Shown: in pieces, positions 1-53,363 of the stretch | How positions within the stretch are numbered: the stretch's first letter is position 1 | How the letters are laid out: every line of letters begins with the position of its first letter | NCBI GenBank assembly: GCA_026986775.1 | Contig: JALSNX010000028.1 | Location: 7,609 to 71,608, forward strand | DNA length: 64,000 bases | Source: a candidate division WOR-3 bacterium | GTDB taxonomy: Bacteria; Hydrothermota; Hydrothermia; UBA1063; CAJXJZ01 | Reading direction: 5' to 3' | Notes under the pieces: model-generated | Told to the model about the DNA's origin: nothing | Database searches by the model: none | Seen by the model: only the letters and a program-made list of their open reading frames with translations | Made by a program: the position numbers and the translations under genes

Positions 1-637
1 AAACAAACGAGCTTTCAATTTTCTTTGCTCTTCCTATACTACCCCCAGAAAGGGAATACAGTGTCAGGACAGGAATCTGCCCCTCAAAAGGATATTCTTT
101 AAACTCCTCAAATTTTAAAGGCCCAAAAGTGAATCTTTTTCCGCGTGAATAGACCGTGGGCAAAATTCTTTCTCTGTGAGATATAACCATTATTATAACT
201 GTTTCATGCGGTGGCTCTTCCAGCGTTTTAAGGAAACTGTTTTGTGATTCTGTGTTCAAATTTTCACCGTTTAACACAAGAACAACTCTCATGCTGGCTT
301 CAAATGTTCCCTTTTTTGAGAGTTCCTTTTCAAGTTCTCTGATTTTATCTATCCGTATATCTTTTGAAATATCAAAGTTGAGTGGCCTTATACCAACAGA
401 AATGTCTATTTCCGGGTCATCCATGGGTTGTACAAGATAAAAATCAGGACTCATAATGGGCTCTTTTTTCCCATCGTACATTATAAGACTGGCAAACGCA
501 TAAGCCATCTGTGCTTTTCCCACTCCCATGGGACCTTCAAAAATAAGAAATGGAGGAATAGAGCCATTTTCATACAGTTTCAAAAGAAGTCTTTTTTCGT
601 TTTCATGACCTATCACTGAAGAAAAAATGTTATCCAT
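1..637 (-). CDS. holB: DNA polymerase III delta' subunit-like clamp-loader AAA+ protein; N-terminal part only, the C-terminus runs off the window
   Basis: Minus-strand translation from the ATG at 637..635 reads [53 protein letters not shown]...[60 protein letters not shown] with no stop down to position 1. The GxxGx[14 protein letters not shown] and SR(C)xxFxF motifs are typical of HolB. A good SD (AAGGGAGGAAC) lies 9 nt upstream. It overlaps the uvrA stop by 8 nt. It is missing from the ORF track because there is no stop codon inside the window. Confidence 0.6.
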
Positions 638-3410: not shown

Positions 3411-3416
3411 GCAAAT

Positions 3417-4604
3417 CTACTTCAAAAGTCCCAGTTCTATATGTCTCTCTTTGATTCTATCAGCCAGCTCTGTAATTTTTTCATAATCTTCTTTTCGTGG
3501 ATGTCCTTTAATCAGGAGAGGCTCAAAAACATGTGCTTTTATGTTGGATAAAAGTCCTTTAAGTTGTTCTGTCATTCTTCCTCCCCATCCATATGAGCCA
3601 ATAATACCAATGTTTTTAGTCTTGGGACGAAGGGCATTCATCAAAAAGGCTGCATAAACCGCTTTGGGATGCGCACCTGCAAGAACCTGTGGACTTGCAA
3701 GAATAACGGTGGCAGCATCAACAAGAGCCATGGCCAATTTTCCTGTATCAGTGACAGTAAGATTACAGGGTTTTACGTCAATCCCCCTTTCAACAAGCCT
3801 GTCAACAAGATAGTATACTATCCGCTCAGTGCTACCATGCATGGAAACATAAGGAATAATAACCACATTTTCAACTCTTTCAGAAATCCAGTCTTTATAA
3901 GCATTAACTATGATTTCTGGTTTTTTCCATATAGAACCATGACTTGGCGCAATTATATCTACATCATATTGCTCTATTTTCTCAATATTTCGCTTTATCT
4001 GGGCTCTGAAAGGCATCATTATCTCTGCGTAATACCTCTTGGCATCCTCTATAACTTTGGCCTCATCTCTTACAAAAACACTTGCACCTGCATAATGGGA
4101 ACCAAAGAAATCGCATGTGAACATAATTTTATCCTCTACAAGATACGTGGACATGGTTTCAGGCCAGTGAACCCACGGTGTTAAAAGAAACTTCAGAGTT
4201 TTGTCACCAAGAGAAAGGGTATCACCCTCATCCACTATTATAAATTTTTCTTCATCTACATGAAGCAGGTCTTCAAGAAACATTTTACATTTTTTATTAG
4301 TTACCACCTTCGCCATGGGAAACTTCTGTAAAACATGGGGAATGGAACCAGAGTGGTCCTGCTCAGCATGCTGAGATATTACATAGTCAATTCTTTCAAC
4401 GCCCAGACTTTCAAGGTTTTCAAAGAGAACATCCTTCTTTTGTGGATCAACGGTATCAATCAACGCAGTTTTTTCACTTCCGATGATAAGATAAGCATTA
4501 TAAGTTGTGCCATCAGGGAGAGGTATGAGTTCATCAAATAGCCTTCTATCATAATGTGCAGCACCCACTTCAAAAATTCTTTCTTTTATTTTGTGAACAC
4601 TCAT
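3417..4604 (-). CDS. Flavodiiron protein (FprA/ROO-type O2 or NO reductase): metallo-beta-lactamase domain plus flavodoxin domain
   Basis: 395 aa. HAEQDHSG di-iron ligand motif (HxExDH), beta-lactamase fold in the N-terminal part, C-terminal flavodoxin-like [11 protein letters not shown]. Confidence 0.85.
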
Positions 4605-25291: not shown

Positions 25292-27355
25292 TCAGACAAT
25301 CCAGTTTTCCTCAACATCCTCCCGGGATATTAGTCGCAAAATATAGAACCCGCTTGCGGGAAATCTCTCCTGAACAATCTCTTTTACAATAATTTTTATA
25401 GCAAGTGCTACAGTTGTATCATCAAGCATAACCTTGCCAAGTGGGACAGAGCACTCAAATACTTTACCCTTCACACAATCTCCGTATTTTCCTTCAACAA
25501 TTTCAAATATTTTGTGCCCCTCAATATCAAAAAACTCTATTCCAATAATACTTTCCATACTTTCAAGAGATTTTTCGCCTTCCACCCTCAGATAAAGATT
25601 ATTCTCATCTCTTCCAAAGAAGAGTCTTGTAAGCGAGGATTTACCCCTTTGCATTACTCCACCCTGTCCGCTTTCAAGGTCAATAACACCAGCACCCAGC
25701 CATTCAAAGAAGTTGGTTACTTTACCATCAAGAGTAGGAGAAATAAAATCACTCTCCTCCTCTATTACATATGTTCTCTTTCTTGTCACGCGTACTGGTA
25801 CATCAAGAAATCCCGGTACATTTCTGCCCAATTTTCTGTAAATCTCTTTTAGATGCTCTCTAAATAGTACATCAAATGTCTCAGCATAAAACGTGGGATT
25901 GTCATCTCCATACCACCAGAACCAGTCCGAACCTTCAGCATATATAAGCTCCATCTCTGCATGACTTTGCTCTTTTAAACTATCTTTGACTTCGTTCTTT
26001 ACGCGAACCAGGTATTCCCATGCTTTGTTTTTTTCAGGATGTCCTATCCATGTGGTGAAATCTGACCTTATCCATGACCCCGGGTGTAACCTCACAAGTT
26101 TTTTACTTTCATGGTTCAGTAAATCTTCTCCCGTCACAAACTCAACCATACCTGAAGCTTCAAGTGTTGAAAATAGTTTCTTCAAAAAGGGTACTCCACC
26201 GTCTTTATAGTTTTCCCAGGGGTTTTCTCCATCAAGAATAATACTTACAACCTCTCCGCCATGCAACACAATGTTTCTTATCCTGTCCATAAAATAAGAA
26301 ATTGCTTTTTCCTTACTCAATCTGTATAAATCAAAGCCTATGCTATCAGACAGTTCCCTATCTCTAAATAAAATCCTGACACCATTAAACTCATATATTT
26401 TGTAAATTTCTGAGGGAAAGTCTCCATTGCGGATTACGTATCCCAGAGATTTTTCCAGTATACCCTCATCAGTACCCACCCACTTTACATCATGCACCCG
26501 GGCAAGATTAATAAATTTTTCAGAAACACCACCCTCAGCAGGCCACATCCCTGAAGGTCTTTTTTTGAATACGGACTCTATGTAATCCATACCAAGTAAA
26601 AGTTGCCTCTCTGCATTTTTCGGGAACCTCCACCTTGTTTCAGGGAGACGAGTATATGGATTTGAAACTTCTGCACAGGATGAGTCTATAAGTAAAGGTG
26701 AGATCGGATGCGCATAGGGTGTAAATGTTATTTCTATCTTGCCTTCTTCCTGCAATTTTCTATAAAGAGGCACAATACGAGAAAGTAAAGTTTTATGCAC
26801 TTCTAAAACCACAGTCTTGTCTTCCTCGCTGTATCCGTAATCTTTTCTTTTTAACTCACCAAGCTCTGGAAACTCTTTTATTGCATAAACAGAGGTGTTA
26901 TAAAGATAAAACAGAATCTGAAGGTCCCTTATCTCACTCGTGGTAAACCTGCTAACCTTTTTTTCTATATCATAGGGACTACCCCTCTTGTCCAGAAGAT
27001 ACAAATAACGCTTTGAGTTTTTGAGCTTCGTGTTGTAATTTAAAGAAAAGAAGTTTTTCAGAATAAATACTCTCTCTTCAAAAGAAAGTGATTCAGCATC
27101 CTTTTTGAAATGTTGTAGAAACACATCCTCAAAATCGTTATTTATATAATCGTTGAGCTGTTCAATGAGGCTCGGAACAAAATTAATGGTGAGCTTTATG
27201 TTATCAATGTCTTCTATCACACGTGCCACATCGTAATATTCTCTTATTCCGTGCATATAAACCCATGGCATGAGATAAACATTCTTTCCGTCCTTTCTTA
27301 TACGATAAACGGGCTGGTGCATATGAAACAAAAACAGAATCTTTACTTTATCCAT
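25292..27355 (-). CDS. Second GH57 family alpha-glucan-active enzyme
   Basis: 687 aa. ILFLFHMHQPVYRI... GH57 N-terminal motif, GMWPAEGGVS. A paralog of the neighbouring gene. Confidence 0.85.
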   Translation of the reverse strand: MDKVKILFLFHMHQPVYRIRKDGKNVYLMPWVYMHGIREYYDVARVIEDIDNIKLTINFVPSLIEQLNDYINNDFEDVFLQHFKKDAESLSFEERVFILKNFFSLNYNTKLKNSKRYLYLLDKRGSPYDIEKKVSRFTTSEIRDLQILFYLYNTSVYAIKEFPELGELKRKDYGYSEEDKTVVLEVHKTLLSRIVPLYRKLQEEGKIEITFTPYAHPISPLLIDSSCAEVSNPYTRLPETRWRFPKNAERQLLLGMDYIESVFKKRPSGMWPAEGGVSEKFINLARVHDVKWVGTDEGILEKSLGYVIRNGDFPSEIYKIYEFNGVRILFRDRELSDSIGFDLYRLSKEKAISYFMDRIRNIVLHGGEVVSIILDGENPWENYKDGGVPFLKKLFSTLEASGMVEFVTGEDLLNHESKKLVRLHPGSWIRSDFTTWIGHPEKNKAWEYLVRVKNEVKDSLKEQSHAEMELIYAEGSDWFWWYGDDNPTFYAETFDVLFREHLKEIYRKLGRNVPGFLDVPVRVTRKRTYVIEEESDFISPTLDGKVTNFFEWLGAGVIDLESGQGGVMQRGKSSLTRLFFGRDENNLYLRVEGEKSLESMESIIGIEFFDIEGHKIFEIVEGKYGDCVKGKVFECSVPLGKVMLDDTTVALAIKIIVKEIVQERFPASGFYILRLISREDVEENWIV

Positions 27356-33717: not shown

Positions 33718-34899
33718 TCAGAAATGTCTATTTTTTACTCCAGCACGTGCTCTGAAAAGCTCAATCATCTCTTTTAAACTTCTTAATGACGCATCGGGGT
33801 CTTTTAGAGCAAGTTTTGTATGATTTAGAACCCTTAAAACCCAGAGTTTAAAAAGAAGCTTTCTCCATTCTTCAATGGTAGGGTCAAAATGTTTCATAAA
33901 TATCTCATAGGACTCATACCATAGTGTCGGATTCATAAAATCGTAATCTCCATCAGAAATTGCTTTTGATACCCTTTCTCTTATATGGGAGGGGAAGTAC
34001 TCTAAAAGCAATGACTTCATCTTCTCGGTCCACCCCTCTTTAAACTCTCTTATAGTACCATCTATATCAAAGGCTATACGGGTCTTGTATTCCTGTGGAA
34101 CCTCCACTGTATTGTCTTTATGGTAAACCATTCTATCCGTATCTATCCTGAGGTTTTTATTTTCCCGTATAAAATCAAAGCACTCCACAGTCATGGTTTC
34201 AAGGTCACTGAGTTTGCCATAGAGTTTATGGTGCTTTCCCTCTTTAATATAAACCTCATACAGTTTAACCCCATATCTTGCAAAAGATATAGTCAAAGCT
34301 GTATCTATGGACCAGTCACTCGCCTCTAAAACAATTTTATCTTTTGCCAGTCGTTCTGCAACTTCTCGTGTAAACCCCAGTTCTCCTCCAAGTGGCTGCT
34401 CTATATCGGGAAGAATTGTATGTGGCCACACATACGCAAAGCCGGTTCTCGTAATATTCCATGTAACCATTGCATCTGTATAGGCTCTCGGGAAAAAGCA
34501 TCTTGATACATGGTATCCTTCATCAAGCCTAAGCTGTACCCTATCAATCCATGTTCTGGAAAAGGACTTTATATCAGCATCGTAAAAGTGCAGAAATTTC
34601 TCTTTTCCTCTCTCAACAAAATATTGAATTGCAGTATTCATCCCATCACCCTTACCCGCTCGTCTTTTTGTTCCAAGTCTCTTCTGTATTATAAGTGATA
34701 TTCTGCTTTTTTCCTCTGCTTTAAGCGTGCTTATAAAATCAGATATACCTCTGTAAGTCTCATTTTCATTATAACCTACCAGAATTACATGCCCCACTCT
34801 TTCATGAGAAAGAGCCTCTTTTATATTATTTTTGAAATCTTCCACGTTTTCTTTTTTGAAGGGAAAACAAACGGCAATGTCTTTTTGCCCCTTTTCCAT
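33718..34899 (-). CDS. GT55-like glycosyltransferase, candidate mannosyl-3-phosphoglycerate synthase (compatible-solute synthesis)
   Basis: 393 aa. GKGDGM and FYDADI (DXD) motifs resemble MpgS. It is near a bifunctional mannose-1-P guanylyltransferase/PMM-like gene. I have no phosphatase partner in the window. Confidence 0.45.
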   Translation of the reverse strand: MEKGQKDIAVCFPFKKENVEDFKNNIKEALSHERVGHVILVGYNENETYRGISDFISTLKAEEKSRISLIIQKRLGTKRRAGKGDGMNTAIQYFVERGKEKFLHFYDADIKSFSRTWIDRVQLRLDEGYHVSRCFFPRAYTDAMVTWNITRTGFAYVWPHTILPDIEQPLGGELGFTREVAERLAKDKIVLEASDWSIDTALTISFARYGVKLYEVYIKEGKHHKLYGKLSDLETMTVECFDFIRENKNLRIDTDRMVYHKDNTVEVPQEYKTRIAFDIDGTIREFKEGWTEKMKSLLLEYFPSHIRERVSKAISDGDYDFMNPTLWYESYEIFMKHFDPTIEEWRKLLFKLWVLRVLNHTKLALKDPDASLRSLKEMIELFRARAGVKNRHF

Positions 34900-34919: not shown

Positions 34920-37166
34920 TTAAAACTGAGTGCCGAACTGAATATGGGGAACCCACTTGCCTCCATTGTTATTAAACCCATAGGCAAGGTCAAATCCAAC
35001 AATGCCCAGCATGGGCATTTCCATTCTTATTCCAATACCTGCACCTTTTTTTAGAACAAAAGGACGCATGTAAGATGAGTTTTTCCATGCATTTCCGGCA
35101 TCAAAAAACAAAAGTCCATAGGTACTTTCACTGAATCTATACCTCAATTCCATTGTACCAATCAGAAAAACCCGTCCACCTACGTTCACACCATTTTCAT
35201 GGGGGCCAACACTTCTGAGCTCATATCCTCGCAATCCAAACGCTCCAACATCTCCAAGGAAAAACCTTTCATTGAATGGCACGTCTTCAGCCGCATAAAG
35301 TCCAACCACACTGCCTGTAAATCCACGCAGAGCAAGTATTATTTTCCTCCTGTAGTTAAAGAGCTGTGACCTTTCAACAGTAAGCTTTCCAAAATTGGCA
35401 TCCCCCATGAGTGGACCGCCTGCAAGTTTGGTTGTTACAACAGTTCTTTCTCCATTCATTGCATTAAAAGACCTGTCCCGTGTATCTCTTGTGAATGTCA
35501 GTGTAATGGCAGAGGTTAGAACAGGCTTTTCCTGTGTCCACTCCTCAAATTCGGGCAATGATTTTAACTCGTCAGGAATATCCTTGAGAGTAACCCTTTC
35601 AAGGGTGTAGCCATAACCAAGATAATTGAAGTCACTTATGATTCTCTGACGATACCCCAGAGAGAACCCTTCCTTTTGTTCAGTATAGGAAGGTAAATAT
35701 CTCGTTGTATAATACACTGCTCCAGAGAAAGACCGTCTCTTTCCTCCAATCCACGGAATCGTGTAATTCAGAGATACATTTCGTCTCTGAGCGCCATATT
35801 CAACAATACCACCTACAGTCTGGCCTCTTCCAAGGAAATTTGGCTCCTGAATCTGAAAATAAAAAGATAATCCATCTATTTCAGAATATGTTGCTCCAAG
35901 TCCAAGCTGGCCTGTTGATTTTTCCTCCACTTTGAATGTCACGTCTATTTGAGAAGAATCTGACGTCTCTGAAAAATCCATTGAGACATTACTGAAATAA
36001 TTGAGGTAATAGAGGTTCCGCTGAGACCTTATGGCCATCTTTCTTGAAAAATACTCACCGGGGAAAAGATACAGCTCTCTTCTTATAACTTCATCAAAGG
36101 TCTTTGTATTACCTTTGATATTGACTTTCCTGACTCTGACCCTAACCCCCTCATTGATATAAACGATGAAATCAACCGTATCGCCCCGTACACTATCACG
36201 CGGATATACAGTTGCATAGATATACCCGGAATCAGCATAAAGTGACTGAATATTCTCAAGACTCTTTTCTAATTTCTTCTGAGAATATACCGCTTTTGGC
36301 CGTAGAACCCATAAGAGGTTCAAAAGTCTGCTCTTAAACAATTTGTTACCTTCAAATCTCACCTTACCGGCATAATACTTCTTTCCCTCTGTAATATATA
36401 TCCTTATATAGATGTCCTTTCCTTTTCTATCCACCTTAAACGAATCAACACGGGCATTCATATATCCACGATTTCTATAATACTCCTCTATTTTCTTCAT
36501 ATCATTCTGAAGTTCTTCTCTTTTAAGTTTGCCCGACCTCAAAAAGCCACGTGGCTTATTCTTCATCTTTGCAATCAGCTTTTTATCTTTAAATACGGTG
36601 TTACCAAAGATTTCAACCTTTTTTATGCGCGCTTTAGGACCTTCGTTAATCTCAAAAACCACATCCGTGAGACATCCTTTTCTGTTTCTATAAGAATAAC
36701 TTATCTCTGCATAGGGATAGCCTTTCTCTGTATAAATATCTTTTATGTACGCTACTGTTTCTTCAAGAAGAGCATCGGAAACTGGGTCACCCCTGTGAAG
36801 GGGAAAACGCTTTATAACCTTTTCCTCTGTATTTTCACCAGTGCCAACCTCTTTAGTACGGTCTTTTGTAAGTTCCGAAGTTTTGACCTTCCTGTTGCCC
36901 TTGAATATGATACTATCCACTCTGGGATTCTCAGTAATATATAGATAGATATCAAGGGAGTCTCCATTTCTTACCGCTCTCACTCTCACCTGCTCTGCAA
37001 AGTTATGCTTTATAAGGTCTTTTATCGCTTTATCAATTTCCGGATAGGATATATCAACGTCCTCTCTTAGTCCTGTAAATGTACGGTAAAAATCGGTGCG
37101 GTTGCACATTGCACCTGAAAAACTCACGGTTCTTATTACGAAGGAAACAAGAAAGGCTATCAACAT
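34920..37166 (-). CDS. bamA: Outer membrane protein assembly factor BamA (Omp85) with POTRA repeats plus a C-terminal beta-barrel
   Basis: 748 aa. Signal peptide, repeated POTRA-like modules. The barrel ends ...VPHIQFGTQF with the C-terminal aromatic residue. Confidence 0.85.
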   Translation of the reverse strand: MLIAFLVSFVIRTVSFSGAMCNRTDFYRTFTGLREDVDISYPEIDKAIKDLIKHNFAEQVRVRAVRNGDSLDIYLYITENPRVDSIIFKGNRKVKTSELTKDRTKEVGTGENTEEKVIKRFPLHRGDPVSDALLEETVAYIKDIYTEKGYPYAEISYSYRNRKGCLTDVVFEINEGPKARIKKVEIFGNTVFKDKKLIAKMKNKPRGFLRSGKLKREELQNDMKKIEEYYRNRGYMNARVDSFKVDRKGKDIYIRIYITEGKKYYAGKVRFEGNKLFKSRLLNLLWVLRPKAVYSQKKLEKSLENIQSLYADSGYIYATVYPRDSVRGDTVDFIVYINEGVRVRVRKVNIKGNTKTFDEVIRRELYLFPGEYFSRKMAIRSQRNLYYLNYFSNVSMDFSETSDSSQIDVTFKVEEKSTGQLGLGATYSEIDGLSFYFQIQEPNFLGRGQTVGGIVEYGAQRRNVSLNYTIPWIGGKRRSFSGAVYYTTRYLPSYTEQKEGFSLGYRQRIISDFNYLGYGYTLERVTLKDIPDELKSLPEFEEWTQEKPVLTSAITLTFTRDTRDRSFNAMNGERTVVTTKLAGGPLMGDANFGKLTVERSQLFNYRRKIILALRGFTGSVVGLYAAEDVPFNERFFLGDVGAFGLRGYELRSVGPHENGVNVGGRVFLIGTMELRYRFSESTYGLLFFDAGNAWKNSSYMRPFVLKKGAGIGIRMEMPMLGIVGFDLAYGFNNNGGKWVPHIQFGTQF

Positions 37167-40371: not shown

Positions 40372-41664
40372 TCAATGTTTTCTTTTACGTTTAAGCTCGA
40401 GATTGATTATTTTTGCTGCTCTTTTGAGAGCTTTATCTACAGGCAACACACCTCTAAGGGCATATTCAAGTCCTTCTGTTGAAAGATACCGTCTTCCTGT
40501 AAACCATGCAGGATTATTTGGCTCAAAATCACAGTAGGCCACCTGTTTCATGGCTTCCTCCATTCCGGGCACTTCTTCAAAGAATTTTTTCATCTCAGGT
40601 TGCTCAAAAGCACTCTTTGTCAGGGGAAGGTATCCTGTATGAACTGACCAGTAAGCTTGATTTTCCGGCCTCAAAAAATACTTTATGAACTCTATGGCAT
40701 TTCTTCTCTGCCAGTCCGGAACATCTCTATAAAGCGTTACATTTGTGCCTGATACAATAACTGTACTGTCTTTGGTTACTGCATCCATGGGAATCCTTGC
40801 AACACCAAGGTCAAAGTCTATCTTATCTTTCATAAAGCTGTAAGACACTATTGTACCCCATACCATGGCCACCTTTCCAGCAGCAAAATCATCCTGATGC
40901 TTATATCCTGTCGTTATGTAGGCACAGCTGTCCTTATACACAAGGTCATAGAGAAACTGCAAAGCCTCTACACCGGCTTTTGAATCAAAAACAGCTGAAT
41001 CATTAACTATGAGCCGACCACCCTTCTGGTAAAGCAACGTTGCAAACATCCAGACATCTATTACAAAAGCAGTACCATAGATGTCAGGTTTTCCATCTCC
41101 ATCTTTATCAATAGTAAGTTTCTTTGCTACTTCTCTGAATTCCTGCCATGTTCTTGGAAAAGAATCTATTCCGTATTCCCTGAAAAGGTCTTTGTTATAG
41201 TAATAAACAGGCACGCTTTTATTAAAAGGGAATGTAACAAGTTTACCATTCCATGTATTGTCCTTTATTAAAGGTGGAAATATATCTTCCAGCAAACTAT
41301 CTGGTATCATGTCCTTATACTCTTCCACTGGCACTATTTTCCCGGCATCCATTAATTCAGATGTCCACGACTCATATACCTGTGAAAATGTGGGGGGTCT
41401 TGAAGAGGCCACAGCCCCCATAATTTTTTGGGATAAAGTTGAATAATTACCAAGGTTAACCTGAACTATTTTCAAAGAATCCGGCACCTGTGCGTTATAG
41501 TTATTAACTATATTCAAAAGCGCCTCCCCGAGGGGACCTCCCATAGCATGCCAGAATACAGTCCTATTTGTATTTTTTGAAACGCAGCCAGCAAACAGCA
41601 GAATAACAAGAAGGATACTACTTCTTGCTTTTTTCATTCCTTTTCTCCTCTTTTTTAGGTCCAA
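40372..41664 (-). CDS. ABC transporter extracellular solute-binding lipoprotein (family 1, sugar-type)
   Basis: 430 aa. Lipobox LLFAGC. SBP family 1 fold character. The transporter permease and ATPase genes are not adjacent. Confidence 0.75.
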   Translation of the reverse strand: MDLKKRRKGMKKARSSILLVILLFAGCVSKNTNRTVFWHAMGGPLGEALLNIVNNYNAQVPDSLKIVQVNLGNYSTLSQKIMGAVASSRPPTFSQVYESWTSELMDAGKIVPVEEYKDMIPDSLLEDIFPPLIKDNTWNGKLVTFPFNKSVPVYYYNKDLFREYGIDSFPRTWQEFREVAKKLTIDKDGDGKPDIYGTAFVIDVWMFATLLYQKGGRLIVNDSAVFDSKAGVEALQFLYDLVYKDSCAYITTGYKHQDDFAAGKVAMVWGTIVSYSFMKDKIDFDLGVARIPMDAVTKDSTVIVSGTNVTLYRDVPDWQRRNAIEFIKYFLRPENQAYWSVHTGYLPLTKSAFEQPEMKKFFEEVPGMEEAMKQVAYCDFEPNNPAWFTGRRYLSTEGLEYALRGVLPVDKALKRAAKIINLELKRKRKH

Positions 41665-42715
41665 GAGGCATTGAATAAGTTAAGGCATATCTTAGATTAG
41701 CACCATTATTATTGAAACTATATATTTTACTGTCATCTGAAACATCAAGTCTGAAATTGCCAATATGGAACCCTACGCCATAGGTTATTCCTTTCCTTGC
41801 ACCTTCTTCGTCCCAAAAATACCCAAATCTAAAACTCAAAAGGTTATAAAAGGTGTATTCCAGTCCACCATGTTTCCATGCCTCGTTTAACACATATCCA
41901 AAACCCTTGTCTTCATAATCCTTAGAGATACCGACCAGTATTTTGTTTATATCCATAGATACTGTAAAACTGTGATAGGGCATACTCATTTTCAAAGCCA
42001 AACCATTTCTCATAAGATAAGGCAATGGGTCTTTTTCATCTGCTGACGATGAATACTTTATTCCCGGGCCGAAATTATCCAGTTGCAGGCCATAGGTGAC
42101 TTTCATTTTAAACCAGCTGGTTTTTGAATGAATCCACTCTTTCTCAAGAACTGTATAAAGCAGAGAGCCTCCAATTGCAAAAGATGCTCCCTTTCCACCA
42201 CCCTCTATGCCAGTGGCTTTTCGCAGAATTTCTGCCGGAGCAAGGAAGGAATAGATAAACTTGATATTAGTTCCCACACTGAGGCGTTTATTTACATCGT
42301 ACGCGTATGCGAGATTTGCAGCCACATCATAGGGGCGCCATTCTCCGTAGTACTCTCCATCAGGCCCATGCCCCTCAAACAATCCATAAGTGGCATATGT
42401 GATAGAAAGTCCTAAAGCTCCCACAGGAAGTGGTCTGGTCAAACCAATAAATTCATAATACATGTCAGGTGCAAGCCCCCTGAGCCATGGGGAATGCATT
42501 AACGTGATTTCAAAGTCTTTTTTAAATGCAATGGCAGAAGGATTATAGTATAGTGCGGTTGCATCATCCGCCACAGCGCAAAAAGCACCACCTAAAGAAG
42601 TGGCTTTGGCTCCGGGATATATTAACAAAAACACTGCACCTGCCTCAAAAGCAGACGCCTGAAGCAGTGTAACAAGGAATAATACTCCCATTATTTTTTT
42701 CACAAATCTATTCAT
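41618..42715 (-). CDS. FadL/OmpP1-like outer membrane beta-barrel; T9SS PorV/LptO candidate
   Basis: 365 aa. Signal peptide. GAKATSLGGAFCAVADDATALYYNPSAIA matches the FadL/PorV N-terminal hatch motif (..AxADDAsaxyyNPAg..). Alternating beta-strand pattern. Confidence 0.5.
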   Translation of the reverse strand: MNRFVKKIMGVLFLVTLLQASAFEAGAVFLLIYPGAKATSLGGAFCAVADDATALYYNPSAIAFKKDFEITLMHSPWLRGLAPDMYYEFIGLTRPLPVGALGLSITYATYGLFEGHGPDGEYYGEWRPYDVAANLAYAYDVNKRLSVGTNIKFIYSFLAPAEILRKATGIEGGGKGASFAIGGSLLYTVLEKEWIHSKTSWFKMKVTYGLQLDNFGPGIKYSSSADEKDPLPYLMRNGLALKMSMPYHSFTVSMDINKILVGISKDYEDKGFGYVLNEAWKHGGLEYTFYNLLSFRFGYFWDEEGARKGITYGVGFHIGNFRLDVSDDSKIYSFNNNGANLRYALTYSMPLGPKKEEKRNEKSKK

Positions 42716-45298: not shown

Positions 45299-46204
45299 CT
45301 ATACAGACAGCCTATCAAGAAACTGTCTGTCTTTTCTCCACCTTTCATGTACTTTGACCCATAGCTCAAGGAACACTTTTCTTCCCAAAAACGCTTCAAT
45401 TTCCTTTCTCGCGTAAGTCCCCAGTTTCTTTATTTTCAGACCACCTTTTCCAATAATAATGGGCTTCTGGCTTTCTTTTTCCACATAAATTATCGCCCTT
45501 ATATAATCCACACCACCGTGTCTTTCATCTTTTTCTATGAATTCGTCAACTTTTACTGCAGCAGCATAAGGTATCTCCTCGCCATACAGATTATAGAGTT
45601 TCTCTCTTATTATTTCTTCAACCATGAATCTTTCGTTTCTGTCAGTTGTAGTATCTTCAGGATAATAAAACTCGCCTTCAGGAAGATATTTGACTATGCT
45701 ATCAAGGAGTTCATCAACATTGATGTTCATCGTCACGCTCATGGGAAAAATCTCTTTAAATGGATAGAGCCTGTTATAAGTTTCTATTAAAGGCAGGAGC
45801 CTTGTTTTCTCAACCATATCAACCTTGTTAATAGCACATATTACCGGCTTCTCATGTTTTTTAAGAAGTTCAATGGTATACATATCAAGCTCATCAGGTC
45901 CAAAGGGATCTGTTATAAACAACACCACATCTGCCTCTTCAAGAGATTCCACGGCATTTTTTATCATCCTCTTATGCAATTCATGTTTTGGCTTTGATAT
46001 TATGCCTGGAGTATCCAGAAAGAGAATCTGAGCGTTATCAAGCGTGAGTATCCCCAATATCCTATGTCTTGTTGTTTGTGGTTTTCTGGACATTGCTGCA
46101 ATTTTCACCCCGATGAGTCTATTGAGCAACGTTGACTTACCCACATTGGGCTTGCCAACTATACCCACATAACCTGATTTTTTAGAAACTGTATTTTGTT
46201 CCAA
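45299..46204 (-). CDS. era: GTPase Era (TTG start; the ORF-track N-terminal extension is rejected)
   Basis: KKSGYVGIVGKPNVGKSTLLNRLIG G1 motif, DTPG, a C-terminal KH domain. A TTG at 46204 is preceded by the SD GGAAAGGAGG with a 7-nt spacer and gives a 302-aa Era of normal length. Confidence 0.8.
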   Translation of the reverse strand: MEQNTVSKKSGYVGIVGKPNVGKSTLLNRLIGVKIAAMSRKPQTTRHRILGILTLDNAQILFLDTPGIISKPKHELHKRMIKNAVESLEEADVVLFITDPFGPDELDMYTIELLKKHEKPVICAINKVDMVEKTRLLPLIETYNRLYPFKEIFPMSVTMNINVDELLDSIVKYLPEGEFYYPEDTTTDRNERFMVEEIIREKLYNLYGEEIPYAAAVKVDEFIEKDERHGGVDYIRAIIYVEKESQKPIIIGKGGLKIKKLGTYARKEIEAFLGRKVFLELWVKVHERWRKDRQFLDRLSV

Positions 46205-47396
46205 TTTTAAACCTCCTTTCCTTAAAAAATTGCAATTTATCCTGTGTGGTGGGGTCAGTTTCTTCAATTGTTCCGCGGGTGAACAGATGGTGTTCCCAGA
46301 AAAACTGAAACCTTCCCCTCTGATATTCCAGCCTTCCTCCGGCATTGTAAACCCTGCCACTTTTATCCTGAACCTGATATATGCATAAAATAGGGCTATA
46401 TACGAGTTTTCCCCACATCGGTATATGAGCTACTGCCTTTAACTTAGACAATGCTCTATTGGTAACTCCGTATACCGTCAGGAAATTCTCATAATTTCCC
46501 AACAATTTAAAGTATTCTCCCTGAATATCCAGATATTTACCCTTAAACGCAAATTCAACGTCCAGACTTTTCTTAAAAACAGAATCGGGTACTCTATAGT
46601 TAAGGTTGAGTAAAACCGGCTTTTTGTCTATAAGTATACTGAGTCTTCTTTCCATGATAGCCATAATAGAATCCCCTGTAATACCGTCTGGATAGAGATA
46701 TGAGAACAAATGAGGGGTTTTAATATCATACCCGTAATGGAGGTCAAGATATGCTCCTCCTGTTATCAAAACCTTTAAATTAAATTCAGGAATAAGCTTA
46801 CTGGTAAGTCCAAGTGACACAAATTTCCTGTTGCCCATTATACCGACACCAGCTCTGTAAATATCCTCATATCCTCGCCTGGATAGCATATCCGTGCGCT
46901 CAATTCCTGAATAAGTCAACACACCTTCTGTACCTGAATAAACAATGGAGAATGCAATGGGTAAATTGAATACAGCATGAGCTGTACTATCTTTTCTAAA
47001 ATAATGCAGTCCGGGAAGCAACGTAATGTTAGGAATAATTCTACCCCATGAGAAATATAAATCCACTGTATCTCTGAGTATAATAGAATACTGTGACCTA
47101 TTCCTCAAAAGACCATATACTCCATGACTTATGCTAAAGAAGCGCGTCGCTATAAAGTATCTGTTTTCTAATGAGGTAAATGGCTCATAGTCATAGCGTT
47201 CTTCCGCAGCAAAATAAAAGCTCTTAAACTTAATTCTAAAATCAGTATGATACCCTGCTTTTAAATAATCCTTTTCCTGGTTGTAATACACAAATTCCCA
47301 TCTTGGAGGATTAATTTCAAGAGCATTTGTGGGCAGAAATATAGAATCAGGTATATTCAACTTCAAAGATACAAGAATAACCGTCAAAACATTCAT
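46182..47396 (-). CDS. Outer-membrane beta-barrel-like hypothetical protein
   Basis: 404 aa. Signal peptide, alternating amphipathic strands, C-terminal ...GTKYSF ending in Phe (the OMP sorting signature). Confidence 0.55.
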   Translation of the reverse strand: MNVLTVILVSLKLNIPDSIFLPTNALEINPPRWEFVYYNQEKDYLKAGYHTDFRIKFKSFYFAAEERYDYEPFTSLENRYFIATRFFSISHGVYGLLRNRSQYSIILRDTVDLYFSWGRIIPNITLLPGLHYFRKDSTAHAVFNLPIAFSIVYSGTEGVLTYSGIERTDMLSRRGYEDIYRAGVGIMGNRKFVSLGLTSKLIPEFNLKVLITGGAYLDLHYGYDIKTPHLFSYLYPDGITGDSIMAIMERRLSILIDKKPVLLNLNYRVPDSVFKKSLDVEFAFKGKYLDIQGEYFKLLGNYENFLTVYGVTNRALSKLKAVAHIPMWGKLVYSPILCIYQVQDKSGRVYNAGGRLEYQRGRFQFFWEHHLFTRGTIEETDPTTQDKLQFFKERRFKIGTKYSF

Positions 47397-48747: not shown

Positions 48748-48782
48748 AATTAAATTTTACGGGTATTTCTGGATAAATCAAA

Positions 48783-48810
48783 GAAAAAAGGGGGCACTCT
48801 GGCCCCCTAT
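48783..48810 (-). terminator. Rho-independent terminator after the propeptide-like gene (GGGGGCcagagtGCCCCC plus T-run on the minus strand)
   Basis: Plus strand reads gaaaaaaGGGGGCactctgGCCCCCtat. The hairpin is nearly identical to the one at 11616..11645. Confidence 0.55.
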
Positions 48811-48817
48811 GTATTGA

Positions 48818-49456
48818 TCAGTTCCTCAGTGGTGGCGCAAAAGCATCTATATCCTCAGGATTTACAACAAAGCCCTTTAGCTGTCCACGAATAAGGTTAA
48901 GTTGATTTATGGTAATTGGATTTACACTTCTGGCTCCTTCCTGATACTTCACTTTTAGAACGAGACTGGTAATAACCCTCAATTCACCACTTACGGGATT
49001 ATATATAACAGGATACACGATGAAAGAAGCAAGAGAGAATCCTCCCATGTTCCCAACTTTGCCAAACTTTACCGGAATTTCTGGATAAAAAGCATCCTTT
49101 TCGTATATCTTTTTATCCGGCCCAATAAATTTCTCGGGAACCTTGAAGGAAATTGGAACCGGTTTCTGCTGTGGTATAACTTTATAGCCTGTACCAATGT
49201 ACTTCGTCTCCATACTCACAATTTCAAAGCCATTGAAACTACTTCCTGCTGGTATAAGCACGGCAACACCACGAGAAGGAAGCATAGGAGCACCAAAAGG
49301 ATTGGTGTAGCCAAAATCTTCATATGTAACCGTAACATATCCCTTTTCCGATCCCAATTTAACTTTAGCAGGGTCAAAAGAGAATTTTATTATTTTTTCT
49401 CCTGCCTGCAGAATCGTAAAGGAAAGAAGCATTATAAAAAGTGTCTTTTTAAGCAT
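48818..49456 (-). CDS. Secreted stand-alone gingipain-type propeptide (Propeptide_C25-like) protein
   Basis: 212 aa. Signal peptide MLKKTLFIMLLSFTILQA. GAPMLPSRGVAVLIP and IYEKDAFYPEIPVKFGKVGNMGGFSLASFIVYPVIYNPVSGELRVITSLVLKV align with gingipain pro-domain segments (G.P.LP.., Y.EDkFfP.E, qYNPV..LRiyt.ivv.V). It has its own SD (AGGAGG) 10 nt after the stop of the C25 gene. Confidence 0.6.
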   Translation of the reverse strand: MLKKTLFIMLLSFTILQAGEKIIKFSFDPAKVKLGSEKGYVTVTYEDFGYTNPFGAPMLPSRGVAVLIPAGSSFNGFEIVSMETKYIGTGYKVIPQQKPVPISFKVPEKFIGPDKKIYEKDAFYPEIPVKFGKVGNMGGFSLASFIVYPVIYNPVSGELRVITSLVLKVKYQEGARSVNPITINQLNLIRGQLKGFVVNPEDIDAFAPPLRN

Positions 49457-49466
49457 AACCCACCTC

Positions 49467-52385
49467 CTACCTTGTCTTCAAAATCTTTTCAATTTTCTTA
49501 TAATCCCGGGCGTTTATATTCACGAAGTAAACTCCAGGCCTTACTGTGGATAAATTAACAGAATGAACACCGATGTTACTGTTCACTGTAAATTCTTCAG
49601 ATTTCACAAGACGGCCATCAACACCGTACACCACCACATCAACTTTTGTGTTTACAGGAGCTTCATAGGCAATGGAAAGATAACCACTTATTATATTATT
49701 TCTGAGAGCAAATCTAATTTTCCTTCCTCTTTCCTGCTCACCTACACCTGTTGTTGGAACAACATAAACGGTATCCTGAGCATAAATGTAGTTATGCTTC
49801 GTGGAGGTAATTACTATATCATTGGTTTCTGCGGCATTGACAGAAAAACTCACAGTTCCTGAAGCGTCTGTGGTATCAACGAGATAAATATCGTAACTAT
49901 CTCCTGAAAACTTCTGAAGCAGCGTAACAACAGCATCGGATACTGCAGCCTTACTCTTAGCATCAGATACAGTTACTGTAATGACCGTGTCCTGTCCCTG
50001 AAGTATGGTATCAGTATTAACAGTCATAACTAAATTCACCGGTACCTCTGTCCATATCTCAAGCGTCGGGTCACCAAGGAGATTTCTTTCATAAAGACAC
50101 CACCTGAAATAATTGTCATTCTGGGCATCAGGCACCATTGAACTCTGCATATTTGCCCAGACCTGACCAAGAATGTATAGTCCATTTTGATGAATGGCTC
50201 TGAAGAAGTACTTACTCTGTTCTCCTGATGGCCCAAGTGCACCTTCAGGTGACGAATAGCCCCAGCCATACCTTGAATTAAACAAAGACGCCACTGTTCC
50301 ACCGTTTGTAGCATTTACAAGATGCTCTGCAAAACAGTCTCCATTTGATACCTCATCCATTGCACCAGCGAAACAGGCTATTGATGTGGTAATTGAGAGT
50401 TTGTCAAAACCGTTGGAAAGGTTGTCTGCATCTGTATTGTTCATCATTGTGCTTGAACCGTTATTATAATAAACTCCATACTCATTACCATGACCTACAA
50501 AGTGCACCAATTGATAACCGTTATTAAATTCACTGTTAACTGAAGACTCCGATACGCCCTCCACATCTTCCCTCATAAATGTATGCGTCCAGTCGGCAGG
50601 GTCAAACTGAACCATGGTATCAGGCATACTGGTACCATGATTGGTATCCCAGAGATTACCCTGAGGGTGGAAGCTTGATTTTATATATGATGCATCCTGA
50701 TAAGGACTCCTCTCAAAATAGAGTAACTTGTTAACAAAGTTCTGGACCTGAGACGTGTTCTTTACAGGTGCTCTCCCAACATAAACATCGGGGTACATAT
50801 CCACATTATCACTCGTTTCTCCATAGGTTCCGTCACCATCACCATCCCACGTTCCATCCAGGTCAGCAAAATACAGATCTGTTATAATGGTATCCTCATC
50901 TGTATAATAACCGGCATTGGACTGGAACACAAAGGCATTTCTCCTTGGCACTATCTCCTCGCCGTTTTCATAGTCACACTGCCCACCAAGAAGGAAATAC
51001 ATGGTTCCATAATTTGCATTCATGTCCTTGATGAAATTCCTTATTTTTTCTGCATTATCATTGCCCGTGTAATTCGCATAAATAGTGTCAAGGGAAACTA
51101 TTCTGGTTCTTATTCCTTTCTGGTTTTTCCAGTCTGCAAGAGGTTCAAAATACGGTGCAAATGAAGAGGATGTGATTATAACAAAATCTGCAGGGCCTAT
51201 GGAGCCTGAGCCACCTCCTCCACCACCACCTGTGCCCCAGGTGTAGGTTTCAGAATGAGAATTATCAGATTCATTGGTTTCTGGTATAGTATTATCTGGG
51301 TCAGCAGTAATCTGGTAGGTGTAGGATCCATCTGTGCTTTCATGTATTTTGTAATTCTTTACATAGACATAATAGCCCGATTGTAAACCCTGTGAATACC
51401 ATCCTGCTATTGCCTGTCCTTCTCTATAAAGATAGTAATATATAGTGTCTGTAGAGGGAATGTCATCAGGTCCTTCATTTATAACCGCCCAGTGCACATA
51501 CTGAGAATCGCCGGGGTTTGTACTGTAATTTCCAGGAGGCGCTGCCGTTGTATCCGAGGAATCAGCAGAAATTACGAGGGATGAATACCATCCTGTAGGG
51601 GTATAAGGTTTTAGATTGGCAGAATAACCAGAACCTCCTCCTGAGGTCTCTATATAAGCAGTAATAAGCCAGTCTATATGAGTACCCGCACCACCGTAAT
51701 CTGCCCACCAACTATCAGTCTGTTCCCAACTGCCGTTGTACATATCATAACAACGATCAGGAGCAATACCAGATGTATCATAAATAAGCCCAAGAGTATC
51801 CACACCAGAAAGTAAAGAATAACCTATATAAAAATCACCGTTTCCCACATTTATACCTAATGATGAAAGGTCAACATATGTACCATGACCGTCGGTATAA
51901 ATATTACTCGTAGATATATCCATATAACCGAGTTCTGTTCCCGGTCCTCCACCATTATCATTCCAAACATGTATTCTTATATTACCACTCCCCACCAGAT
52001 GATAAAACCAGAAAGCAACTCCAACTAGCTGTCCCGACTGTGAAGGAGTAAATTTCACCGAGTAAAGAGAATCATCATAACTATCAGGCTGGTTCCAGTA
52101 AAAATAAGCAGCACTGGAACTTGTATCCCAGTAAAAAACTTTAAGCGTATCACCCTTAGTATACATATCATCAATTACAGGTTTAATTCTAACCAGATCA
52201 CCGTAAGTTCCTTTTTTTGAGCAAATTTTCTTATTGTTTGTTACCGGAAGACTTTTCCCCGTTTTATTCCATTTATCAGCCTTCGCCACTTGAGCCCTGC
52301 CCACTATGGGCACGCCCTTGAGGGGATGTGTCGTTACCACAAGCCCCCCATACATTATCAGGATGGACATTACTATACCATACAT
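49467..52385 (-). CDS. Peptidase C25 (gingipain-like) cysteine protease with an N-terminal CARDB-like domain and a C-terminal T9SS sorting domain; alternatively a PorU-like T9SS signal peptidase
   Basis: 972 aa. Signal-like N-terminus. CARDB-like segment (...PDNTIPETNESDNSHS...). A G7SGS linker. Catalytic domain start ADFVIITSSSFAPYFEPLADWKNQKGIRTRIV. His motif FVGHGNEYG and Cys motif SIACFAGAMD. C-terminal VDVVVYGVDGRLV...RPGVYFVNINARDYKKIEKILKTR matches the T9SS CTD. Confidence 0.85.
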   Translation of the reverse strand: MYGIVMSILIMYGGLVVTTHPLKGVPIVGRAQVAKADKWNKTGKSLPVTNNKKICSKKGTYGDLVRIKPVIDDMYTKGDTLKVFYWDTSSSAAYFYWNQPDSYDDSLYSVKFTPSQSGQLVGVAFWFYHLVGSGNIRIHVWNDNGGGPGTELGYMDISTSNIYTDGHGTYVDLSSLGINVGNGDFYIGYSLLSGVDTLGLIYDTSGIAPDRCYDMYNGSWEQTDSWWADYGGAGTHIDWLITAYIETSGGGSGYSANLKPYTPTGWYSSLVISADSSDTTAAPPGNYSTNPGDSQYVHWAVINEGPDDIPSTDTIYYYLYREGQAIAGWYSQGLQSGYYVYVKNYKIHESTDGSYTYQITADPDNTIPETNESDNSHSETYTWGTGGGGGGGSGSIGPADFVIITSSSFAPYFEPLADWKNQKGIRTRIVSLDTIYANYTGNDNAEKIRNFIKDMNANYGTMYFLLGGQCDYENGEEIVPRRNAFVFQSNAGYYTDEDTIITDLYFADLDGTWDGDGDGTYGETSDNVDMYPDVYVGRAPVKNTSQVQNFVNKLLYFERSPYQDASYIKSSFHPQGNLWDTNHGTSMPDTMVQFDPADWTHTFMREDVEGVSESSVNSEFNNGYQLVHFVGHGNEYGVYYNNGSSTMMNNTDADNLSNGFDKLSITTSIACFAGAMDEVSNGDCFAEHLVNATNGGTVASLFNSRYGWGYSSPEGALGPSGEQSKYFFRAIHQNGLYILGQVWANMQSSMVPDAQNDNYFRWCLYERNLLGDPTLEIWTEVPVNLVMTVNTDTILQGQDTVITVTVSDAKSKAAVSDAVVTLLQKFSGDSYDIYLVDTTDASGTVSFSVNAAETNDIVITSTKHNYIYAQDTVYVVPTTGVGEQERGRKIRFALRNNIISGYLSIAYEAPVNTKVDVVVYGVDGRLVKSEEFTVNSNIGVHSVNLSTVRPGVYFVNINARDYKKIEKILKTR

Positions 52386-52485: not shown

Positions 52486-52513
52486 AATTATACACCTTTA
52501 TCCAGAAAAGTCA
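52486..52513 (-). promoter_or_regulatory. Candidate sigma-70 promoter (TTGACT-N16-TATAAT) for the C25 peptidase/propeptide operon
   Basis: Minus strand reads TTGACTtttctggataaaggtgTATAAT, about 100 nt upstream of the C25 ATG in an AT-rich 153-bp intergenic region. Confidence 0.4.
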
Positions 52514-52538
52514 AACTCATGTTCAAAAATCATGTTTA

Positions 52539-53363
52539 TTACTTTATTAACCTGAGAAGTTGGAGCATTTCAAGTGGGTATTGCATGTGTTTTATATTTT
52601 CCTTTCTACATCCATCACGCTGATCCTCATCATAATTATCACAATTCTCTGTCTCAACTACAAATGAAAAAACTATGTCTCCTATGTTTTGCGGTATAAA
52701 ATAAAGATAATGATAGAGATGACCGGCCGCACCTTCTGTTCCCCCTTTTATGAAACAGAATCTAATGGAATTATGTTTCAGAGTAATTATTTTGCTCTCT
52801 ATCTCCTTGTTTTCAGATGGAAAAAAGTCATGGATGAATTTGAGAGATGGACAGGAATCTTTATTTTGTATTATAGAGGAATCCACCTTGTTTACGCTCA
52901 ATCTAACAAAACCAGAAGGCTCAATTTTGCTGAGTATAACAAGACCTGAATTCTTTAAAATATAGACCTTAGAAGTATCTTTAATTTCTGATTTGCGAAT
53001 TACTGCATTTTTGTAAGTCTGCTTTAACGATACAACTCTACATCCTTCGGCACGACACCTCAAAATAGATATTTCATCAATTATTCCAACACTTTCCCAT
53101 TCTTTAAATCCCTCCTTCAAGCTGGCATAAACTCTATAGAGAGAACTGTCAATTTTTTCAACACCTTTTATTGTAAATCCCGTGTATCTAAAGTCACCAC
53201 TTTCTATTAAGGAATACTCAGGATTTAGTGTGTCAGAGGTTGCATCCTTTATAAATCCGCTGTCACACTCTACCCTTGCTCTGTAGAACTTTTCAGCAAA
53301 CCTACGAACATAATTGGAAGGAGAAACTGCAAGTACTAATATGCAAAAGAGTATAGCCGTCAT
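52539..53363 (-). CDS. Secreted Cys-containing hypothetical protein
   Basis: 274 aa. Signal peptide MTAILFCILVLAVSPS. I recognise no catalytic motifs. Confidence 0.5.
   Translation of the reverse strand: MTAILFCILVLAVSPSNYVRRFAEKFYRARVECDSGFIKDATSDTLNPEYSLIESGDFRYTGFTIKGVEKIDSSLYRVYASLKEGFKEWESVGIIDEISILRCRAEGCRVVSLKQTYKNAVIRKSEIKDTSKVYILKNSGLVILSKIEPSGFVRLSVNKVDSSIIQNKDSCPSLKFIHDFFPSENKEIESKIITLKHNSIRFCFIKGGTEGAAGHLYHYLYFIPQNIGDIVFSFVVETENCDNYDEDQRDGCRKENIKHMQYPLEMLQLLRLIK

Follow-up and report, generated by a model that had tools for sequence, protein, structure and literature searches.

Proteases of the gingipain family count among the major virulence factors and are abundant degraders of protein in the environment. 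In all characterised gingipains that we know of, an N-terminal pro-domain is part of the same polypeptide as the catalytic domain; how it controls folding, latency and secretion has, to our knowledge, been examined up to now solely after artificial separation of the domains. Supplied in trans, the recombinant propeptides of RgpB and Kgp are inhibitors of the mature forms of their cognate enzymes, with inhibition constants (Ki) of 12 nM and 2 uM (PMC3677877). The RgpB pro-domain binds laterally, with its inhibitory loop, Lys121-Tyr135, in the cleft and Arg126 in the S1 pocket (PMC4138498, PMC4357240). Here we describe a locus from a candidate division WOR-3 bacterium, found in a 64,000-nucleotide (nt) stretch of contig JALSNX010000028.1 (positions 7,609 to 71,608; this whole stretch is the window), in which a gene for a 972-amino-acid (aa) peptidase of family C25 is followed by a gene for a 212-aa protein resembling a gingipain pro-domain. 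We call the second gene the pro gene and its product the pro protein. We put at roughly two in three the probability that the pair is a two-gene operon encoding a C25 peptidase secreted by a type IX secretion system (T9SS) and, as a separate polypeptide, its pro-domain, for which homology suggests a role as inhibitor or chaperone.

Separately encoded partners of secreted enzymes have been described outside family C25. The Lif proteins of Pseudomonas and Burkholderia (LipB/LimA) are membrane-anchored periplasmic steric chaperones encoded in the same operon as their client lipase, and MEROPS families I9 and I29 include stand-alone propeptide-like inhibitors, none of which is known to serve an enzyme of its own operon as the only pro-domain. 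The gene for Spi adjoins speB in Streptococcus pyogenes, is co-transcribed with it and is regarded as a safeguard for the producing cell (PMC2873492, citing Kagawa et al. 2005). Staphostatin and Bfi genes are likewise co-transcribed with those of their proteases, and a periplasmic location is predicted for some of the Bfi proteins (PMC2873492). For a naturally detached C25 pro-domain, we found no description in the searchable literature (open-access papers), which is absence of evidence but agrees with an earlier reading of this DNA (the original prediction), whose author knew of no such arrangement. That reading had given two open reading frames (ORFs) of 972 and 212 aa with 10 nt between them; we find both exactly so, on the minus strand.

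The 212-aa protein

The 212-aa protein belongs to a family of proteins 211-213 aa long, with 79 invariant columns in their alignment. All 11 family members match the Propeptide_C25 profile, PF08126, at E <= 0.01 (best 8e-8), and 10 of the 11 have a precomputed PF08126 match. Searched against the PDB, the family profile matched only the pro-domains of Kgp (5mun, E = 8e-5) and RgpB (4ief, E = 0.0097). A profile search of 1.84 billion representatives returned 4,882 matches, 1,131 of them at E <= 1e-10, and the best of the 4,882 align with residues 1 to ~210 of proteins of 700-3,000 aa. In these relatives, which carry the pro-domain in cis, the pro segment likewise spans residues 1 to ~210 and is followed by the motif Y.IIT...WK..G; aligned with them, the 212-aa protein stops about 12 residues short of the start of the catalytic domain.

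The predicted structure points the same way. An AlphaFold2 (AF2) model of the protein has a mean predicted local distance difference test score (pLDDT) of 91 and a predicted template-modelling score (pTM) of 0.81. Foldseek matched it in the PDB, at E < 0.001, only to chains A, C, E and G of 4ief and chains A and B of 5mun, each with a probability of 1.00, E-values of 3e-10 to 2.5e-8 and template-modelling (TM) scores of 0.52-0.72; the next match had E = 0.5. By sequence and model, the 212-aa protein is the end-to-end counterpart of the signal peptide plus pro-domain of an ordinary C25 proenzyme, and the homology that the original prediction had drawn from a few aligned segments is borne out by both the family matches and the fold.

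The pro protein is not N-terminal to a C25 catalytic domain; it is encoded by a separate ORF with its own Shine-Dalgarno sequence, start and stop. Its N-terminus reads as a Sec-type signal peptide (MLKKTLFIMLLSFTILQA, followed by GE), and both this signal and the Shine-Dalgarno sequence of the gene had been noted originally. The protein has no T9SS tail. It also has no cysteine, hence no lipobox, and is not a lipoprotein.

The 972-aa protease

The match of the 972-aa protein to the Peptidase_C25 profile, PF01364, covers profile positions 1-373 of 374, a full-length C25 catalytic domain, so that the check proposed earlier against this profile came out clearly. Neither His632 nor Cys671 varies among 19 relatives (alignment A5). 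Both phmmer and the family profile match the protease to RgpB (4ief_B and 1cvr_A), and the aligned motifs pair LADWKNQKGIRTR with VDWKNQRGLRTE at the start of the gingipain domain, FVGHGNE with YTGHGSE around the histidine, and SIACFAG with DVACVNG around the cysteine. Judged by its sequence, the protein is a member of peptidase family C25. All clade members have a poly-Gly linker at the position of the Gly7 linker, next to the catalytic domain.

The C-terminal sorting domain scores above cutoff with both profiles used (Table 1), and a homologue of the T9SS shuttle protein PorV (PF19572, 44 bits) is encoded at 41618-42715 on the minus strand, about 6 kb downstream of the operon. Given these two features, the protease qualifies as T9SS cargo.

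Pfam and three further, independent tests located no pro-domain in the protease. Pfam gave no match to PF08126 in the 972-aa protein. Aligning the profile of the small-protein family with residues 1-407 by hhalign gave a probability of 0.1%. With every filter disabled, a custom pro-domain hidden Markov model (HMM) built from A3 scored -2.7 on residues 1-400, against 177 bits on an upstream-type pro protein outside its training set and 54 bits on a divergent cis pro-domain missed by Pfam. An AF2 model of residues 1-400 had a pLDDT of 73 overall and of 80-90 within its two folded domains, and Foldseek matched it to CARDB domains and generic beta-sandwiches, with the gingipain pro-domain (4ief, 5mun) absent among the top 50. 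Because the Pfam, profile-profile, custom HMM and fold searches are all negative, the protease is without a pro-domain in cis. The parts of the protease named in the original prediction, namely the catalytic motifs and gingipain-domain start, the T9SS sorting domain, and the CARDB domain and Gly run ahead of the catalytic domain in place of a Propeptide_C25 domain, are all as it described them.

One further element of the protease deserves mention. Directly behind the signal peptide, all clade proteases, in either gene order, carry the motif P-[IL]-x-G-[VI]-P-[IL] (alignment A5). In the window protease it occupies aa 21-29 (52299-52325, minus strand) and is modelled by AF2 as a short hairpin of low confidence. 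The motif segment is present twice in P0017. A docking strand is a candidate role.

Recurrence and selection

At nine or more loci the protease gene precedes the pro gene across an identical 10-nt junction: the window, L001, L002, L003, L006, L007, L008, L009 and L010. At L002/L003 and L006/L007 the pair sits among different flanking genes, and the loci that bear it are drawn from assemblies of NCBI, JGI, ENA and Logan. Of the 74 pro-like loci that a scan of species-representative genomes gave, three were stand-alone; all three fall in the clade of the window, and two are labelled candidate division WOR-3. The ratio of nonsynonymous to synonymous substitution rates (dN/dS) could be read from a single unsaturated pair, for which it was 0.154 in the pro gene and 0.125 in the protease gene; in the other pairs synonymous sites are saturated, with a proportion of nonsynonymous differences (pN) of 0.12-0.42. 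Both genes are under purifying selection and are co-inherited, and the downstream arrangement is a feature of the clade, not a one-off. With the pair at no fewer than nine loci, different flanks and purifying selection, the earlier view that a frameshift or assembly error is unlikely stands. The recurrence in related genomes that the original prediction proposed to survey was found too, but not in a single form: sister loci have the pro gene upstream of the protease.

Several other candidates for a stand-alone pro gene were rejected. The short pro-like ORFs at L026, L040, L046 and L054 proved to be frameshift or masked-base splits of cis genes, and P0135 and P0140 are fragments of cis genes. 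Fusion of the two products by programmed frameshifting or readthrough was also rejected: in the downstream order the pro-domain would come after the C-terminal sorting signal, and in the upstream order a canonical signal peptide of its own begins the protease. Of two unrelated C25 genes in which Pfam shows no pro-domain, neither had a pro gene in its neighbourhood. One of the two, P0088 (L089:4001-7255), is listed with PF01364 only but has a divergent N-terminal cis pro-domain that scores 54 bits with the A3 HMM. PF08126 thus under-detects pro-domains, and Pfam-based counts of pro-less C25 proteins are inflated.

Cis, upstream and downstream forms

Relatives of the protease fall into a graded series of pro-domain placements, which runs from cis forms through an upstream gene to the downstream gene of the window's clade. 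The canonical cis form, with the pro-domain directly ahead of the catalytic domain, is represented by P0034 (pro-domain at residues 40-193, C25 domain at 221-589). In P0030 and P0031 the pro-domain is likewise part of the chain, though CUB and CARDB domains set it about 700 aa apart from the C25 domain. At the upstream-type loci (L082, L083/L084, L085, L086 and L087), a detached pro gene encoding 200-215 aa lies 5' of the protease gene with a gap of 2 nt, and its last two codons, AGG AGG, form the Shine-Dalgarno sequence of the protease. The proteases of these loci have the same beta-sandwich, CARDB and C25 architecture as the window protease, and their pro proteins align with that of the window over the full length at 27-31% identity.

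The catalytic domain of the window protease is 71-72% identical to those of the upstream-type P0024 and P0025, and 68.5% identical to that of the downstream-type L006. Gene order has thus switched inside a tight protease clade. Downstream-type pro proteins share 34-38% identity with the cis pro-domains of other paralogues and 28-34% with upstream-type pro proteins, whereas the proteases give the opposite signal, with 68-72% identity between upstream and downstream types. By these identities the downstream pro gene would have originated either by relocation or by capture from a paralogue, and the pro proteins evolve too fast for the two to be separated.

Two loci show an upstream-type pro gene in a damaged state. 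At L004:3105-5222 and L005:2-1183, a DDE_Tnp_1 transposase gene lies directly 5' of a 133-aa ORF, which is beside an intact protease gene of 945 aa (P0028). The ORF corresponds to the 3' two-thirds of an upstream-type pro gene and lacks the signal peptide and first strands. An insertion sequence (IS) element appears to have truncated the pro gene here, which may be a natural knock-out. About 1 kb upstream of its split pair, L002 also bears (at 1-4091) a canonical C25 gene of 1,473 aa with pro-domain, C25 domain and T9SS tail; such genomes have both cis and split C25 systems.

Locus organisation

The features of the locus are listed in Table 1. At the junction of the two genes, the letters read ...ACA AGG TAG GAGGTGGGTT ATG, with the GGAGGTG Shine-Dalgarno sequence overlapping the stop codon of the protease. 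This junction of stop and Shine-Dalgarno sequence is kept in every downstream-type locus, and the protease and pro gene are translationally coupled. The site upstream of the protease is the best promoter-like match of the region. With a promoter-like site 5', the overlapping junction within and a terminator-like hairpin 3', the pair looks like a self-contained two-gene operon in the order promoter, protease, pro gene, terminator, and the two genes are probably co-transcribed. Besides the pair, no C25-like or pro-like sequence was found in the window.

Table 1. Features of the protease and pro gene pair, with positions in the window
Feature	Position	Strand	Evidence or remarks
Protease gene (972 aa, C25 gingipain-family cysteine peptidase, without pro-domain)	49467-52385	minus	ORF; Pfam/NCBIfam
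N-terminal beta-sandwich, family unassigned, not pro-domain-like (aa 80-246)	51648-52148	minus	AF2 pLDDT ~80-90; Foldseek generic beta-sandwiches
CARDB domain (aa 288-378)	51252-51524	minus	PF07705, 37 bits; Foldseek 3idu, 2kl6, TM ~0.8 on target
Gly7 linker (aa 386-392), directly 5' of catalytic domain	51210-51230	minus	
Peptidase_C25 catalytic domain (aa 401-776)	50058-51185	minus	PF01364, 200.4 bits, cutoff 23
Catalytic codons	His632 50490-50492; Cys671 50373-50375	minus	
T9SS type A C-terminal sorting domain (aa 901-968)	49482-49685	minus	Por_Secre_tail PF18962, 28.7 bits (cutoff 27); TIGR04183, 29.7 (cutoff 23)
Pro gene (212 aa, predicted stand-alone C25 pro-domain; signal peptide aa 1-18, mature aa 19-212)	48818-49456	minus	
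Loop segment aa 95-111 (PQQKPVPISFKVPEKFI) of pro protein, aligns with RgpB inhibitory loop Lys121-Tyr135	49124-49174	minus	irregular loop in AF2 model
Coupling junction	49457-49469	minus	protease TAG stop inside TAGGAGGTG Shine-Dalgarno, 3-4 nt 5' of pro-gene ATG
Promoter-like site TTGACT-16 nt-TATAAT, 11/12 consensus	52487-52514	minus	~100 nt 5' of protease start; consensus match alone
Intrinsic-terminator-like hairpin, 7-bp stem (6 G-C pairs) and T-run	48779-48808	minus	begins 10 nt past pro-gene stop

Other genes of the window are noted here for context. Between a MazG-like gene and the protease lies an ORF of 274 aa (52539-53363, minus strand) without a Pfam or NCBIfam match. At the syntenic loci L001 and L010, the MazG gene is followed directly by the protease gene with no such ORF between, so the 274-aa ORF is an insertion particular to the lineage of the window. 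An ORF of 404 aa after lptF, without a Pfam match (46182-47396, minus strand), overlaps the longest Era-like ORF (45299-46360, minus strand) by about 180 nt; the Era homologue in L001 is called at 301 aa, and translation of Era in the window probably starts further downstream than at the listed GTG. A BamA gene is found at 34920-37166. The window also holds genes for a mannosylglycerate synthase (33718-34899, minus strand) and a GH57 glycoside hydrolase (25292-27355, minus strand). Such genes are typical of thermophiles, a hint that the organism, which synteny with L009 and L010 places among the relatives of WOR-3, may be thermophilic.

Proposed mechanism and alternatives

By homology, the pro protein would act as an inhibitor or chaperone of the protease. 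In the mechanism we propose, the two proteins would be exported separately by Sec into the periplasm, where the pro protein would dock laterally on the catalytic domain in the manner of the RgpB pro-domain and place its conserved loop, aa 95-111, in the active-site cleft. The enzyme would be kept latent, and possibly helped to fold, until it crosses the outer membrane by means of its T9SS sorting domain. Having no sorting domain, the pro protein would be left in the periplasm, or would exit as a non-covalent passenger and then be degraded. The split itself probably arose when a beta-sandwich and CARDB domain were inserted between the pro- and catalytic domains, with gene fission following; such a fission would have done little harm, since tight binding in trans is already a property of C25 pro-domains.

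Several observations weigh against this reading. The pro protein of the window scores 20.5 bits (E = 2.9e-4) against PF08126, just under the gathering cutoff of 22, so that the profile match anticipated in the original prediction narrowly fails for this sequence alone; the family-level and structural tests pass clearly, and we therefore hold the pro-domain homology to be solid despite the single sub-cutoff score. A further point concerns the loop. The longest stretch of invariant residues in the pro family, P95-S103 (PQQKPVPIS), falls within the segment aa 95-111, but the position of the P1 mimic (Arg126 in RgpB, Lys129 in Kgp) is taken by an invariant Ile102 (or Ser103), and the Arg or Lys that had been expected in the inhibitory loop is not there. 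Lys98 and Lys105 flank Ile102/Ser103; among the cis relatives, 9 of 21 have Lys at the P1-mimic position, as in Kgp. On the side of the enzyme, Asp163 of the RgpB S1 pocket aligns, within a weakly aligned segment, to Thr585 or to the invariant Gly584, depending on the alignment, and no conserved acidic residue was seen nearby in the protease relatives of alignment A5. With Ile102 at the P1-mimic position and Asp163 unmatched, the mechanism of latency may differ from that of the gingipains, or the enzyme may not be Arg/Lys-specific. The pro proteins also evolve far faster than their enzymes: across the same genome pairs they share 31-37% identity, against 68-72% for the catalytic domains. Lastly, the apparent truncation at L004/L005 may mean that the pro protein is dispensable, at least transiently.

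How much the pro protein does, and for which enzyme, can be read in several ways. The strongest version of our proposal makes the detached pro-domain an obligatory, reusable periplasmic partner that would fold and silence the protease and then either be removed at the T9SS translocon or pass through it together with the enzyme; we offer it tentatively and consider it unlikely to hold in full. A narrower role, as a steric chaperone for a single round of periplasmic folding of the catalytic domain with no part in latency, like Lif beside lipA, would account for the absence of the substrate-mimicking Arg/Lys at the position of the invariant Ile102, and tight 1:1 translational coupling would suit a stoichiometric folding partner. 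That the equivalent of the inhibitory loop is nonetheless the most conserved stretch of the protein, with P95-S103 invariant, suggests a specific contact, and the solved homologues are inhibitors (PMC3677877, PMC4138498); the chaperone and inhibitor roles are compatible, and folding as the only function seems improbable to us. The pro protein might instead shield the periplasm from other C25 peptidases, those of its own paralogues or of neighbouring cells, in the manner of Spi, the staphostatins and Bfi. Relatives do hold further C25 genes with cis pro-domains, such as the 1,473-aa one in L002, and adjacent protective inhibitors, some of them periplasmic, are known for C10 and C47 proteases (PMC2873492). 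A general inhibitor would not be expected to behave as this gene does, though: it is always joined to a pro-less protease, in both gene orders and in varied neighbourhoods, and none was found beside the pro-containing or unrelated C25 genes examined. Gingipain propeptides are moreover selective for their cognate enzyme (PMC3677877), and we regard a defensive role as a poor prospect.

The remaining alternatives deny the small gene a function or an existence of its own. It matches precisely the 5' end, signal peptide and pro-domain, of a normal C25 gene, and its nearest relatives outside the family are the cis pro-domains of other paralogues (34-38%) rather than upstream-type pro proteins, as would be expected of a functionless leftover of a degraded second C25 gene. 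Such debris would hardly persist as an intact ORF of 211-213 aa in at least 11 lineages, down to 37% identity, with a dN/dS of about 0.15, equal to that of the protease, and 79 invariant columns, nor would it keep the overlap of Shine-Dalgarno sequence and stop, the 10-nt gap and the terminator. The data on selection and conservation effectively refute this explanation, to which we give very little weight. The other, that one gene was split by a sequencing, assembly or frameshift error, has real precedents in the short pro-like ORFs of L026, L040, L046 and L054. Here the order runs from catalytic domain through sorting domain to pro-domain, so that no frameshift could restore a normal gene; the small gene has its own Shine-Dalgarno sequence, start codon and signal peptide, and the same structure is seen in independent assemblies. 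An artefact is refuted, with a probability that we place close to nil.

The natural separation of the two domains in two gene orders, together with the cis relatives and the apparent truncation at L004/L005, provides a ready-made test system. It could be used to test the chaperone against the inhibitor role, the fate of a partner without a T9SS signal, and the gene fission of multidomain zymogens. Were the obligatory-partner reading true, the pair would be the first natural two-component C25 zymogen. It would give a handle on whether the gingipain pro-domain is a folding chaperone or an inhibitor only, and on whether the T9SS can carry or discriminate non-covalent complexes; the non-basic P1 mimic and missing S1 aspartate would then set apart a subfamily of C25 that cleaves with a novel specificity and has a matching, co-evolved plug. 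Two warnings for annotation follow: short PF08126-like ORFs beside C25 genes are real genes, and, as P0088 illustrates, a missing PF08126 match does not prove a missing pro-domain.

Comparison with known systems

Like Lif and the inhibitors of families I9 and I29, the small protein is encoded apart from the enzyme and would take on, as chaperone or inhibitor, what a cis pro-peptide does in related enzymes, but folds and enzyme classes are unrelated. Staphostatins beside staphopains, and Bfi beside Bfp of Bacteroides fragilis, resemble it in that a small gene directly adjoins the gene of a secreted cysteine protease; these inhibitors are lipocalin-like and unrelated to a propeptide, however, and their proteases retain cis propeptides. 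The nearest concept is SpeB-Spi of S. pyogenes (family C10), where a propeptide-like small protein is likewise encoded next to the protease gene, with co-transcription inferred in our case. SpeB retains its own propeptide in cis, and Spi is a supplementary copy in the cytoplasm, whereas here the protease has only the detached copy, which is predicted to be exported; moreover, SpeB belongs to clan CA and C25 to clan CD.

The cis relatives with long inserts, P0030 and P0031, have the same CARDB and C25 core, 50-53% catalytic identity and a pro-domain that is already remote, yet form one polypeptide. Compared with the gingipains RgpB and Kgp of Porphyromonas gingivalis (MEROPS C25; 4ief, 5mun), the window protease shows the same catalytic family, His/Cys dyad and T9SS sorting domain, and the pro protein the same fold, length of ~200 aa, signal peptide and conserved loop at the position of the inhibitory loop. 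The differences lie in how these parts are put together. The pro-domain here is the product of its own gene, after the protease gene or, in sister lineages, before it, rather than the N-terminus of the enzyme, which in the window protease is made up of an unrelated beta-sandwich together with CARDB and a poly-Gly linker; the P1 mimic (Arg126/Lys129) and S1 Asp163 are not recognisably kept, and activation would need no cleavage at a junction. The covalent pro-domain arrangement that defines C25 zymogens is thus absent from this locus, and the pair extends, rather than overturns, what is known of them.

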